Assembly: GCA_049968235.1 (NCBI GenBank) | Contig: JBMFRC010000012.1 | Location: 1-64,000, forward strand | Source of the DNA: Candidatus Hydrogenedens sp. | Lineage (GTDB): Bacteria; Hydrogenedentota; Hydrogenedentia; Hydrogenedentales; Hydrogenedentaceae | Direction: 5' to 3' | Length of the DNA stretch: 64,000 nucleotides | Part shown: piece after piece, positions 25,452-30,715 of the stretch | How the letters are laid out: the number at the start of each line of letters is the position of its first letter | How positions within the stretch are numbered: the stretch's first letter is position 1 | Position numbers and translations under genes: made by a program | The notes under the pieces: model-generated | Databases searched by the model: none | Told to the model about the DNA's origin: nothing | Seen by the model: the letters and a program-made list of their open reading frames with translations, nothing else

Positions 25452-26561
25452 TTATTGCTGTATGTAATTTAGATGTTCAAATGATAATAAATTAGGGCGG
25501 GAAATGGATGTTATTAATGAGATTATTTGCTGTTCTTCTATTGATTTATGTATTCCTTCCATAATCTCTACGATATGTAACGCCAATTCACCTGTGGCAC
25601 AATAAGAGGAATTTGTTTGTAAAGCATGAGCCATATCGCTAATACCCAATCCTCTCATATTTGTAAAATAATTAAAACAGGTCGGGAATTCGGACCATTC
25701 TTTCTTAAACTGATTATAGAAAAGTATCTTTCCCCCAAATTGATTTGGGTCAGGAAGGGATAAAGAACCTGTTTCGCCATGTATCTCTATATATGGTAGA
25801 TGATGTGACCATGTATCAAAACTCATAATAAGTGAACAAATAACACCAGATTCAAAAGATAATATTGCATGAATATCCGTTAAAACTTCTACATGTATTT
25901 TTTGTCCATATTTTGGTGGGCTTGTAATTGTTCGCGTATTGAAATTTATTTTTCCCTTTGCAAAAACTGATTTTACAGGTCCTAATAAAAATACAAGCGA
26001 TGTTAAATAATATGGACCCATATCAAATAAAGGACCACCACCTCTTTGATAGTAAAATTCGGGAGAAGGGTGCCACGATTCATGCCCTCTGCACAGCATA
26101 AAAGCGGTTGCAGAAAGGGGAGACCCTATCCAATTATCATCAATAATTTTTCTTGCTGTTTGCCAACTTCCTCCTAAAAAGGTATCTGGAGCACAACCTA
26201 TAAACAAATGGTTCTTTTGGGCTGTTTTCAAAAGTAGTTGGGCTTGTTCAAAAGTAAGAGCAAGAGGTTTCTCGCTATATATATGTTTGCCCTGTTCTAA
26301 TGATTTTAAAGAAACATCGAAATGGGATGATGGATTGGTTAAATTAATAATTAATGGAATATCATTTGATTGGAGAATATCATCAACAGTATATACTTTA
26401 ATATTATATTTTATTCCTTTTTCTTCGGCTTTTTCTCTAATAGCATCAGCACAAGCAATTAAATTTAAATTGTCAAATCGCAATATATTCTCAATATATA
26501 ATTCAGATATATTCCCACAACCGATAATAGCACAATTTATGGGTTTTAATTGCTGTCCCAT
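25452..26561 (-). CDS. Gfo/Idh/MocA-family NAD(P)-dependent oxidoreductase
   Basis: The N-terminal Rossmann motif is AIIGCGNISELY. A C-terminal alpha/beta dimerisation domain is present. Confidence 0.8.
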   Translation of the reverse strand: MGQQLKPINCAIIGCGNISELYIENILRFDNLNLIACADAIREKAEEKGIKYNIKVYTVDDILQSNDIPLIINLTNPSSHFDVSLKSLEQGKHIYSEKPLALTFEQAQLLLKTAQKNHLFIGCAPDTFLGGSWQTARKIIDDNWIGSPLSATAFMLCRGHESWHPSPEFYYQRGGGPLFDMGPYYLTSLVFLLGPVKSVFAKGKINFNTRTITSPPKYGQKIHVEVLTDIHAILSFESGVICSLIMSFDTWSHHLPYIEIHGETGSLSLPDPNQFGGKILFYNQFKKEWSEFPTCFNYFTNMRGLGISDMAHALQTNSSYCATGELALHIVEIMEGIHKSIEEQQIISLITSISRPNLLSFEHLNYIQQ

Positions 26562-27311: not shown

Positions 27312-27818
27312 ATGAATAAGAACGCATTAAAAAAATATTTGACTTTATCATTGATTGTTGGGGTATGCGCAGGGAGTTTTTATCCTTTACATCAAAAAAA
27401 TATGGATATAAATAAAGATGGGATTATAGATGTTTGTGATGTTCAACAGTTAGTATCCGCTATTATTTCAAATGATATAAATGTTCTCCCGGATATAAAT
27501 AATGATGGAAAGATAGATGTAAAAGATTTGCAAATCCTTATGAAAAATATGGGTAAGAAGCAAACAACAGGAAAATTAAAACCTGAAATACTTAGCAACA
27601 TCCCAAGAACAAATTATAATAACCAGCAATTAAAAAAGACATGGACATATAATTCTTTTATTAATTCCAATTTAATATGTGAAAGTAAAAAATTTGATGT
27701 TCTATCAAAAAGATTTGCACAAAATAGAGAGGATAGAGAAAGTATTGTTTCTTCAAAATTATATGGGGAAAAGTACCTCGCCTACCATATCAGTGCAAAA
27801 TCCCCTCCCAACAATTAA
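27312..27818 (+). CDS. Small secreted protein with a dockerin-type double Ca-binding segment
   Basis: It has a signal peptide. Two loops follow (DINKDGIIDVCDVQQLVSAI and DINNDGKIDVKDLQILMKNM) in the DxNxDGxIDxxD-hydrophobic pattern of type-I dockerins. Confidence 0.55.
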   Translation: MNKNALKKYLTLSLIVGVCAGSFYPLHQKNMDINKDGIIDVCDVQQLVSAIISNDINVLPDINNDGKIDVKDLQILMKNMGKKQTTGKLKPEILSNIPRTNYNNQQLKKTWTYNSFINSNLICESKKFDVLSKRFAQNREDRESIVSSKLYGEKYLAYHISAKSPPNN

Positions 27819-27892: not shown

Positions 27893-30715
27893 ATGATTAG
27901 AACAACGCATAAAAGTATTATGGGGGTTGTGCTGTTAACCGTAACAATAGTATTTACCCCATTTATAAGTAGAGCAGTAGAACCATGTCCTCTACCGTCT
28001 GATAATAGTGCCTTATTAGATTTACTATGGCCTATGTTTGACTCCAATAAAGATGGAGGATTATCAAAGGGAGAATTGTCTGCAATTTATTCAGTTCCGG
28101 ATCAGTATTTTAATATGTTAGATACAAATAAAGATGGAAAAATTGACCGTATGGAGTTTCAGCCTATCCTTGCTCTATTGCAAGTATATTTGCCCGGTGG
28201 ACTTTTATCCCTTGTGGACGCTAACAGGAACCAACTTATTGAATTCCAGGAAGTATCCAGTTATGTAAATCAACAGCAGTTTCAATTGTTGGATAGGAAT
28301 GGGAATGGTGTTATAGATTGTGGTGATATTGGTGAATTGCCACCCGTGGAGGGTGAACCCGGTGTAGAAGGTGAAATTATTATAGAGGGTGAACCTCCTG
28401 TTCCCGAAACAGACCCTTGTGATTGGGTAGAGATGGCATTAAACGAATTTGTAAACCTTGACCAGAACAATGATGGTGTAATTACCCGTGATGAGTTGAA
28501 TTTCCCTATTATTATGATTTACCCCCCTATTGTCGATTTCGATGTGTTATTCCAAGAATTTGACCTGGATAGCAATGGTGCTATTACAAAAGCCGAATTA
28601 GAAGCATGGGCGGATATGTGTGATATTGATACAGGAAATAATGGTGAATGTCCACTACCTACAATGACACTTCAGTCAATATTAGAATTAGTCTTTCCAT
28701 ATATTGACCAGAATGGTGATGGAAAGTTAAGTCCTGATGAGGTAAGAAACATATACCCGGATGTGGATAATGCGTTAAGTCAGTATAATTTTACATTGGA
28801 ACAAATTTATTTCATAGTAGATGGAAATCATGACGGAGGAGTAACAATTAATGAATTAATGCCGATTTTGAGCATGTTAGCACCTCAAATAGGACTTGAC
28901 CCCAATAATGTTCTCTCTATAATTGATAAGAATGGAGACTTAATGATTAGTTATGAAGAAGTCTCCGAATATGTAACAGCAGAACAGTTCGCTTATGTAG
29001 ATTCCAATGGTAATGGTTATATAGATTGTAATGATTTGGACCAAATTGTCATTCCTCCATGGGAAGGCGAACTTCCTCCATGGGAAGGCGAACTTCCTCC
29101 ATGGGAAGGCGAACTTCCTCCATGGGAAGGTGAACTTCCTCCATGGGAAGGCGAAATGCCACCTATAAACTGGAATACTTGTGAATTAGGAGCAATTGCT
29201 CTTCAATATTTTGATATTCTTGATGTAAATTCTGATGGTGCTATCACATTGGAAGAGTTATTGTCTACTCCTGTGATTACCGTAATTCCACTACCTATTG
29301 ACCCTGCTATTGTAGGAAAAGTATTTGACATTTTTGATGTGAATGCGGATGGGAAAATCATCAAAGATGAGATTAAATCCATTATAGATGCCTGTCCAGA
29401 ACTTCCTCCGATAGAGGGAGAACCTCCTATACCTATAGAAGGTGAGTTTGAAATTCCAACGGACCCATGTGTAATTGCACCTCTTGCTCTTAAATACTTT
29501 GATTGGATTGACCGAAATAAAGATGGTCGTATTACTATGGATGAACTTACAGGTCCTGTAATTATGACAGTTTCATTACCGATAGATATTTCTGTAATAT
29601 CGGAAGTGTTCAGGAAATTTGACCTGAATGGAGATGAAGCCATCATTAAGGATGAAATAAAATCTGTATTAGATACATGTAGCGGAGGTCCCGTCGAAGG
29701 TGAACCGACAGATGAGGGAGAAATTGTAATATTCCCTGACCTATGGAATCCGTGTTCTCTGGCTTTTTATGCAATCCAAATGTTTAATACTATAGACCAG
29801 AATAAAGACGGGGTAATAGATATGAACGAGATAATAACCGCTATTACATCCGTCTATATGATGCCTATAGACCAAACATGGCTAACACGTATTTTAAGTA
29901 TGCTTGACCTTGATAATAATGGTGCGATTACTTTAAATGAATTGCAATCTATCAGTGAAAGATGTCAGTCACAATCTTCCGAAACAGGTGGTCCAGGACC
30001 CGGTCCAGGTGGTAATGAACCACCTACATCTTTGATTTTAGAACGAGCAGTTTCAGGAAACCGCAGATATTGGTCTGGACAAACATTGACAGTGATCCTG
30101 ACCATTAGAAATCCTATTCACTTAAATGTTTCTGCTTTAGGTTTGAAAGAAACACTCCCGACAGGGTGGGTATTACAATCTGTCGTGGAAACCAGCAATG
30201 CAGTTGTTGTTCCTTCTAATGGTGCAACAGGCACATTAGAATTTGCATGGATGGATATACCCCCATTCCCTGTTAAAGTTGTATATAATGTATCTGTTCC
30301 TAATGATGCCGATGGACAGGCTGTAATTAGTGGATATGTTCTCTACAGAACTGTCGATAGTGAAGAATTATCTTCTCCTGTCGTTGATACAGTCCTGTTA
30401 AAAGGCTGGTCACCTGATAGAGCCCACTCTGCTGATTCCAATCGTGATTGGTCCATATCTCTGACAGAAATGTTACGAGTAATACAAATGTTCAATTTCG
30501 GTGGTTATAGCTGTGATGACACCTCTGAAGATGGATTTGGACCTGGTGAAGGCAAGAATAGAAATTGTGTTCCTCATTCGGGAGATTATCAACCTCAGGA
30601 TTGGAAGTTTAATTTGTCCGAATTATTACGGCAAATTCAATTGTATAATGCACCTGGTAAAGGATATATTCTTCAGGAAGGAACAGAAGATGGTTTCGCT
30701 CCACTTCTAAACTAA
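27893..30715 (+). CDS. Large secreted modular Ca-binding protein. It has six Cys-bracketed EF-hand modules, acidic GE/P-rich linkers and a C-terminal beta-rich domain, then ends in two DW..(L/F)..L(R)xIQ.(F/Y)N repeats.
   Basis: It has a signal peptide. There are about sixteen canonical 12-residue EF loops (DxNxDGxIxxxE), for example DSNKDGGLSKGE, DTNKDGKIDRME, DQNGDGKLSPDE and DRNKDGRITMDE. Each module starts and ends with a Cys. The linkers read VEGEPGVEGEIIIEGEPP, PPWEGEL x5 and IEGEPPIPIEGE. Confidence 0.7.
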   Translation: MIRTTHKSIMGVVLLTVTIVFTPFISRAVEPCPLPSDNSALLDLLWPMFDSNKDGGLSKGELSAIYSVPDQYFNMLDTNKDGKIDRMEFQPILALLQVYLPGGLLSLVDANRNQLIEFQEVSSYVNQQQFQLLDRNGNGVIDCGDIGELPPVEGEPGVEGEIIIEGEPPVPETDPCDWVEMALNEFVNLDQNNDGVITRDELNFPIIMIYPPIVDFDVLFQEFDLDSNGAITKAELEAWADMCDIDTGNNGECPLPTMTLQSILELVFPYIDQNGDGKLSPDEVRNIYPDVDNALSQYNFTLEQIYFIVDGNHDGGVTINELMPILSMLAPQIGLDPNNVLSIIDKNGDLMISYEEVSEYVTAEQFAYVDSNGNGYIDCNDLDQIVIPPWEGELPPWEGELPPWEGELPPWEGELPPWEGEMPPINWNTCELGAIALQYFDILDVNSDGAITLEELLSTPVITVIPLPIDPAIVGKVFDIFDVNADGKIIKDEIKSIIDACPELPPIEGEPPIPIEGEFEIPTDPCVIAPLALKYFDWIDRNKDGRITMDELTGPVIMTVSLPIDISVISEVFRKFDLNGDEAIIKDEIKSVLDTCSGGPVEGEPTDEGEIVIFPDLWNPCSLAFYAIQMFNTIDQNKDGVIDMNEIITAITSVYMMPIDQTWLTRILSMLDLDNNGAITLNELQSISERCQSQSSETGGPGPGPGGNEPPTSLILERAVSGNRRYWSGQTLTVILTIRNPIHLNVSALGLKETLPTGWVLQSVVETSNAVVVPSNGATGTLEFAWMDIPPFPVKVVYNVSVPNDADGQAVISGYVLYRTVDSEELSSPVVDTVLLKGWSPDRAHSADSNRDWSISLTEMLRVIQMFNFGGYSCDDTSEDGFGPGEGKNRNCVPHSGDYQPQDWKFNLSELLRQIQLYNAPGKGYILQEGTEDGFAPLLN
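29054..29158 (+). repeat. 5 x 21-bp near-perfect in-frame tandem repeat (CCTCCATGGGAAGGCGAACTT), encoding (PPWEGEL)5
   Basis: Units 1-3 are identical. Unit 4 has one synonymous change (GGT). Unit 5 ends GAAATG. The repeat lies inside CDS 27893..30715. Confidence 0.9.

Follow-up and report, generated by a model that had tools for sequence, protein, structure and literature searches.

A probable in-frame variable-number tandem repeat in a linker of a large EF-hand protein from Candidatus Hydrogenedens

The locus and its repeat array

The stretch of DNA considered here (the window, 64,000 nucleotides with a G+C content of 35.9%) comes from Candidatus Hydrogenedens sp. and carries a gene for a 940-residue multi-EF-hand protein, in which a 21-bp unit is repeated five times head to tail within a linker between two EF-hand modules. 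The closest database relatives of this host protein are proteins from Candidatus Hydrogenedens sp. or from Hydrogenedentes metagenome-assembled genomes (MAGs). The features on which the argument rests are the following:

27893..30715, + strand: gene for the 940-residue multi-EF-hand protein, defined by its open reading frame (ORF), Pfam matches, cysteine parsing and an AlphaFold2 (AF2) model
29030..29179, + strand: linker 2 as a whole, from Cys379 (end of module A2) to Cys430 (start of module B2), 50 residues, predicted unstructured
29054..29158, + strand: array of five tandem copies of the 21-bp unit, encoding four PPWEGEL and one PPWEGEM (residues 388-422)

The first-pass annotation described five near-identical in-frame units, one of them with a synonymous change and the last with a modified 3' end, and this description is borne out by direct reading, by Tandem Repeats Finder (TRF) and by translation of the ORF. 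The copies that begin at 29054, 29075 and 29096 are identical (CCTCCATGGGAAGGCGAACTT), copy 4 (29117-29137) differs by a single synonymous change from GGC to GGT (T at 29131), and copy 5 (29138-29158) is altered only in its last codon, in which CTT is replaced by ATG and, thus, Leu by Met. TRF places the repeat at 29052-29155 with a period of 21 and 5.0 copies (97% matches, no indels, score 201), and a separate repeat search arrives at the same register. The runner-up tandem repeat of the 64-kb window scores 66 as compared with 201. The array is far above chance expectation. Since its first base opens codon 388 of the ORF ((29054-27893)/3 = 387), the array is in frame. The unit was not found elsewhere in the window on either strand, and a search for inverted repeats near the locus returned nothing relevant. 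An ORF in the +2 frame at 29031-29168 (45 residues, with FLHGKAN repeats) was rejected as coding, as it represents the array read out of frame within a strongly supported gene. The runner-up repeat, two copies of a 20-bp unit at 26217-26256 (90% match), lies inside a GFO_IDH_MocA-type oxidoreductase ORF on the reverse strand (25452-26561).

Architecture of the host protein

The assignment of the host to the EF-hand proteins is equally well founded, with Pfam matches to EF-hand_7 (2.1e-60, in nine stretches) and EF-hand_6 (3.2e-59), 13 loops that match the strict pattern and about 16 loops overall. The AF2 model, built on 28 homologues (mean predicted local distance difference test score, pLDDT, 73), is confident in the EF modules and the C-terminal region and contains helix-loop-helix pairs, for which Foldseek matches include calmodulins. 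The protein therefore has the paired helix-loop-helix elements and DxDxDG-type 12-residue loops by which EF-hand calcium-binding proteins are defined. Pfam also reports SPARC_Ca_bdg (4.5e-16), and the modules bear paired cysteines. When parsed by conserved cysteines, the protein resolves into six modules, each with a Cys at its first and last position:

C32-C143: module A1, four EF loops
C176-C243: module B1, two EF loops
C253-C379: module A2, four EF loops
C430-C501: module B2
C526-C596: module B3
C621-C691: module B4

Read from the N-terminus, a putative signal peptide is followed by A1, linker 1, B1, A2, linker 2 with the array, B2, linker 3, B3, linker 4 and B4, and then by a Gly/Pro linker (GPGPGP), a beta-sandwich and a C-terminal double-repeat module of 100 residues. 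This parsing confirms that the array occupies the acidic linker between modules 3 and 4, that is, A2 and B2, and residues 385-426, which include it, have a pLDDT below 50 and are devoid of secondary structure in the AF2 model, as is every inter-module linker. The four inter-module linkers are made of hydrophobic-Glu-Gly-Glu motifs preceded by prolines, for instance PPVEGEPGVEGEIIIEGEPPVPETDP, and the remaining three are:

28322..28417, + strand: linker 1, GDIGELPPVEGEPGVEGEIIIEGEPPVPETDP, Cys143-Cys176, three EGE motifs (two to five in orthologues)
29396..29467, + strand: linker 3, Cys501-Cys526, two EGE motifs, conserved length of 20-24 residues in orthologues
29681..29752, + strand: linker 4, Cys596-Cys621, two EGE motifs, conserved length of 23-26 residues in orthologues

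Among orthologues, length varies in linkers 1 and 2 and is near constant in linkers 3 and 4. In linker 1 of two orthologous loci, tandem duplication can also be recognized at the DNA level, namely in L004:3457-3531 (2.3 copies of a 33-bp unit, 80% match) and L002:880-927 (2.7 copies of an 18-bp unit, 73% match).

Copy number between and within species

Five close orthologues, with 83, 75, 72, 68 and 58% identity, lie in a conserved gene neighbourhood composed of a methyltransferase, a small dockerin-domain protein, the EF-hand protein, Methyltrans_SAM on the opposite strand and a CCP_MauG cytochrome c peroxidase. At the orthologous linker, the number of units in these syntenic orthologues is 1, 2, 2, 4-6 and 5. 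Five units are present in the window and in the proteins P0001, P0044 and P0045, four in P0002 (PPIWEGEL plus three PPWEGEL) and P0050, and six in P0048 and P0049, the four- and six-unit proteins all belonging to a sister species. Two units are found in P0003 (FPVEGEL and PPWEGEI) and in P0004, a single one in P0005, P0007 and P0009-P0011, and from one to two or three in more distant relatives. In all of these alleles, from one to six units, the reading frame is kept and the protein is full-length. A degenerate DNA scan for WEGELPPWEGE retrieved only the P0004 contig among genome contigs and only one sister-species contig among metagenome contigs; evidently, the window's species has no genome bearing the EF-hand locus in the collections scanned.

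The proposal that the expansion is very recent is supported by this comparison. Of the 314 fourfold-degenerate sites that the window gene shares with its orthologue of 83% identity, 135 differ (43%), whereas inside the window array the first three copies are identical and the fourth is one base off; distant orthologues, in turn, have only one or two units. At the same unit positions at which the window has GGC and CTT, the sister species mostly has GGT and TTA. Because the units are closer to their array neighbours than to their counterparts in the other species, the sequences indicate that expansion or homogenisation postdates the split of the two species.

Within the sister species, whose cluster at 90% identity includes proteins of 938 and 952 residues, P0002 and P0048 are identical save for a 14-residue gap within the array. 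The contigs L002 (ERZ27257418) and L013 (ERZ27247220), the latter from a strain that is 1.2% diverged, carry four units, which can be written by their distinguishing codons as I-CTT, TTA, TTA and CCG-GGC-CTT. The contigs L011 and L012 (JGI 3300009761 and 3300010327) have two additional CTT units relative to L002, resulting in six, and L007 (Ga0123519) also has six, in an order unlike that of the L011/L012 allele. The arrays of L002 and L011 measure 87 and 129 bp, respectively, a difference of 42 bp, on flanks that are otherwise almost indistinguishable, with 0 of 1578 bases differing on one side and 1 of 6557 on the other (one single-nucleotide polymorphism, SNP, in 8135). Four- and six-unit alleles on such near-identical backgrounds fit the expectation that length changes in whole 21-bp units with the frame maintained.

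Interpretation as an in-frame VNTR

With a probability of roughly 80%, the array is an in-frame variable-number tandem repeat (VNTR) in an unstructured linker that connects the A1-B1-A2 half of the protein with the half formed by B2-B3-B4, the beta-sandwich and the C-terminal module, and it has been amplified to 4-6 units in the lineage of the window's and the sister species, where it changes by whole units. The tandem identity of its copies and a unit length that is a multiple of three are the structural features of an in-frame coding VNTR. Both the mutational mechanism and the functional consequence of length are what we infer from this pattern. The ancestral linker 2 would have contained one or two Pro-Pro-Trp-Glu-Gly-Glu-hydrophobic units, which were presumably amplified to 4-6 copies in the lineage that gave rise to the window's species and its sister, and replication slippage, or unequal exchange of one copy with another, would then add or remove whole 21-bp units. 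As 21 is a multiple of three, every such change leaves the reading frame intact. Each unit contributes seven residues of tether, or up to ~2.2 nm by standard geometry if extended as polyproline II, together with one Trp and two Glu, so that copy number would set how far and how flexibly the two halves can move apart, as well as how many PWEGE motifs are displayed.

Spacer or binding element

The idea of a tunable spacer, as advanced in the first-pass annotation, stands in so far as copy number sets the length of the linker, but the unit is probably more than an inert spacer, given that the peptide is conserved and that similar arrays recur. Six distinct 21-nt unit variants occur in the two species, all of them encoding PPWEGE(L/M), and the differences between internal units are all synonymous (CCA/CCG, GGC/GGT and CTT/TTA). 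Trp is retained at linker 2 in most orthologues, down to ~50% identity. In homologues with 28-30% identity (P0026, P0027 and P0028), several linkers contain arrays of independent origin in which the unit has six residues, (L/V)PWEGE; one of these linkers has four copies in P0027 versus three in P0028, and P0035 carries an array of the 13-residue unit WPPLEGEFPWEGE. Judged by these sequences, this EF-hand protein family has repeatedly amplified PWEGE-type units in tandem, and the independent origin of the arrays in distant homologues makes the PWEGE peptide motif itself appear to be under selection.

A possible, though tentative, alternative that is compatible with a VNTR sees PPWEGEL as a multivalent short linear motif, in which each Trp-Glu-Gly-Glu would be a binding site and copy number would tune avidity instead of distance. 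Candidate ligands would be Ca2+, an EF-hand module loaded with Ca2+ (through its hydrophobic cleft, in cis or in trans) or another matrix partner. The invariant peptide encoded by all unit variants, the retained Trp and the independent hexad arrays speak in its favour; nevertheless, AF2 yields neither confident linker structure nor docking, recent duplication alone accounts for part of the identity between units, and linker 2 of P0010 and P0011 lacks WEGE and reads PP[VI]EGEFPPEW instead, with Val or Ile replacing Trp before EGE. Moreover, we know of no partner or Ca2+ site for a motif of the PPWEGEL type.

A far more speculative extension, to which we give little credence, would make the PWEGE motifs Trp-anchored ligands for the Ca2+-loaded EF-hand clefts of the same protein family, so that the protein would assemble itself into a multivalent matrix or tether that Ca2+ can switch. 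Attachment to the cell surface would be provided by the dockerin-like module at the C-terminus together with the small dockerin protein encoded next to it, and slippage would tune the valency of the assembly and, hence, the threshold for gelation or adhesion between strains. Trp anchors the targets of calmodulin, and the PWEGE motif, which is conserved and has arisen independently in distant homologues, makes up the only Trp-rich stretch of the protein.

Reliability of the copy numbers

Returning to the VNTR, it is important to stress that all copy numbers given here are taken from assemblies and not from reads, so that an array collapsed or expanded during short-read assembly could in principle explain either the five units of the window or the difference between four and six units in the sister species. 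Several observations weigh against the VNTR in this respect. No variation in copy number is seen among the three NCBI MAG records of the window's own species. The SPAdes contig ERZ795381 (~5x coverage) terminates within the array, and in GCA_035378955.1, an NCBI MAG obtained from it, a run of 100 N takes the place of the missing part (contig DAOSUS010000088.1, here L009:1642-1741), so that the orthologue appears as a pair of partial proteins, HOQ33391.1 and HOQ33390.1; the array is, therefore, a trouble spot for assembly, with the gene of one public MAG split by Ns at this place. Finally, the two four-unit arrays were both assembled with MEGAHIT (k141) and have neighbouring ENA accessions, and every six-unit array is from a JGI assembly. 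Given these origins, an effect of the pipeline on the difference between four and six units keeps a small residual probability, of which the existence of two distinct six-unit alleles and the differences between species are independent.

On the other side, all three MAG records of the window's species have five units (P0044 is identical to the window protein, whereas P0001 and P0045 are partial), and at least one of them is demonstrably a separate assembly: the P0001 contig, L001 (GCA_049971155.1), shares 99.93% identity with the window, with 5 SNPs and 0 gaps over 7086 bp, and its array is identical to that of the window down to the GGT marker in copy 4. The longest exact repeat internal to the array, 58 nt, is resolved by any k of at least 59 or by a read of ~125 nt. 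Each sister-species allele is present in two independent samples, the two six-unit alleles differ in internal order, and the copy numbers that distinguish species (1, 2, 4-6 and 5) sit in otherwise diverged sequence. An assembly artefact is, thus, an improbable explanation; the concern, which had been raised in the first-pass annotation, was legitimate, as the SPAdes break demonstrates, but finds no support for the window. As to the length polymorphism suggested in the first-pass annotation, the assemblies show four versus six units in the sister species and a uniform five in the window's own. Classical phase variation, in which the array would act as a contingency locus switched on and off by frameshift, might be considered for a perfect tandem repeat in the gene of a probably secreted and surface-associated protein, yet it can be dismissed almost outright, since the 21-bp unit is divisible by three and lies within the ORF, and every allele of 1-6 units is in frame and full-length.

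Comparison with known systems

In pathogenic bacteria, in-frame VNTRs are a well-known feature of surface proteins, in which they occupy stalks and linkers. The Xr region of Staphylococcus aureus protein A (24-bp units, the basis of spa typing) and the Ser-Asp R regions of ClfA and the Sdr proteins are in-frame, near-identical repeats in a wall-spanning or stalk part, which vary by whole units between strains, a variation attributed to slippage. They differ from the array described here in belonging to Gram-positive, LPXTG-anchored proteins, in having other peptide units and in being well studied experimentally.

The best functional analogy for a repeat that tunes length is BclA's collagen-like region, in the exosporium nap of Bacillus anthracis, which is also a short in-frame tandem repeat that makes up part of a surface-protein stalk and has a copy number specific to the strain. 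Its polymorphism results in variation of filament length, according to work from 2003 as summarized in a passage that cites it. The two are unrelated by homology: the BclA repeats are GXY triplets, folded into a collagen triple helix, whereas the present array is a PPWEGEL heptad, predicted unstructured, between globular EF-hand modules. Another example is Lcl, a collagen-like adhesin that in Legionella pneumophila is secreted or located at the surface and whose locus is used in VNTR typing. Isolates differ in the number of its repeats, and this number is correlated with binding, aggregation and the formation of biofilm (PMC6460258), which provides a precedent for the tuning of avidity as well as length. 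Unlike the present array, which is known from sequence, Lcl has collagen GXY repeats in 11-18 or more units that form a triple helix, and its effects have been measured.

When the host protein is considered instead of the repeat, one point of reference is the group of secreted bacterial proteins with several EF-hands, among them calsymin of Rhizobium etli. Against this group, the present protein stands apart as much larger and by its six Cys-bracketed modules, ~16 loops, hydrophobic-EGE linkers, beta-sandwich and C-terminal double-repeat module. Neither Pfam nor NCBIfam yielded a match to a family model specific to the 940-residue protein or to calsymin. Literature searches combining Hydrogenedentes with EF-hand returned nothing, and those with dockerin only MAG surveys of digesters.

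The VNTR is a fairly ordinary feature of a well-known kind; what is more unusual at the locus is the family to which the host protein belongs, together with its C-terminal module. The repeat in itself makes no long-standing question testable. It does reveal the VNTR process in Hydrogenedentota, an uncultured phylum, within a so far uncharacterised family of very large, probably secreted EF-hand proteins, and the locus could be used as a strain marker. The PWEGE motif and the C-terminal module offer starting points from which to approach the role of abundant calcium-binding surface proteins.

Other features of the protein and its neighbourhood

The N-terminus of the EF-hand protein forms a hydrophobic helix in the AF2 model (residues 2-24), followed by SRA|VEP, and the mature protein is strongly acidic, with a pI of ~4.05 and 152 Asp and Glu against 46 Lys and Arg; it is probably secreted and surface-associated. 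The following features lie downstream of the EF modules and upstream of the gene:

30023..30412, + strand: beta-sandwich domain, residues ~711-840, with an adhesin-, pilin- or cohesin-like fold
30413..30712, + strand: C-terminal module of ~100 residues (841-940), two EF-like loop-helix repeats
27312..27818, + strand: dockerin type I protein of 168 residues (Pfam 6.8e-9) with a hydrophobic N-terminus

The NCBIfam matches of the EF-hand protein comprise the models of XopAW, a deiodinase-related protein, lanmodulin and a transaldolase. The match to the type III effector XopAW (NF041410) exceeds the curated cutoff (139 bits versus 120) but is the sum of four separate stretches, the best of which spans only positions 31-160 of the 235-position model. 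Furthermore, the 940-residue protein has a Sec-type N-terminus, and no genes for a type III secretion system are present in the conserved neighbourhood. The match appears to be generic EF-hand similarity, and automatic annotation could mislabel this family on the strength of its score. Lanmodulin (NF053806) was rejected with 46 bits versus a cutoff of 135; lanmodulin loops typically have Pro at loop position 2, which is missing from the loops found here (DSNKDG and DTNKDG).

The C-terminal module follows the pattern HSADxNRDWxISLxEMLRxIQ...EDGF, or HSADxNRDWxISLxELLRxIQxxN...EDGF, and has the duplicated loop-helix layout of cohesin-binding type I dockerins, in which each Ca2+-loop/helix duplication spans roughly 22 residues. 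It has no match in Pfam or NCBIfam and no meaningful sequence match in PDB. Dockerin_1 (PF00404) was therefore not retained for residues 841-940, its sole weak match (E 0.018) falling on an EF-hand at residues 72-89. Cellulosomes, with their dockerin modules and Pro/Thr-rich linkers between modules, are a further system to compare. In comparison with cellulosome-type dockerins, the module is also longer (~100 versus ~60-70 residues), and adhesin and pilin folds score equal to cohesins for the beta-sandwich; a cohesin-dockerin pairing would be hypothetical here. A word-index homology search with the 101-residue module gave six matches, and an exhaustive search with a seven-sequence profile was used instead, which detected 3032 cluster representatives at E<=1e-3 (2649 at E<=1e-10) among 1.84 billion proteins. 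The matches are nearly always located at the extreme C-terminus of their carriers, which range from 108 to 3565 residues and, where sampled, contain Big_3_5, PKD, fn3, CARDB, cohesin, GDSL-lipase and surface Ig-like domains. From its sequence distribution, the module looks like a widespread, unannotated dockerin-like module for the anchoring, sorting or assembly of surface proteins, which supports display of the EF-hand protein outside the cell, where the length of a tether would matter.

In every orthologous locus examined, the 168-residue dockerin protein is encoded directly upstream of the EF-hand protein, and it may be a partner of the 940-residue protein. The start of its second dockerin repeat (ATATAAATAGTGATGGG..., at about 27490-27500 of the window) coincides with a contig end that is common to several sister-species assemblies. 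L002:1, L011:1, L012:1 and L009:1 (equivalent to L013:4596) all fall on one and the same base, in four assemblies that comprise one from MEGAHIT, one from SPAdes (the NCBI MAG) and two from JGI, and the fifth assembly, represented by L013, continues through this point, which is possibly a strain-variable junction or a site of rearrangement.

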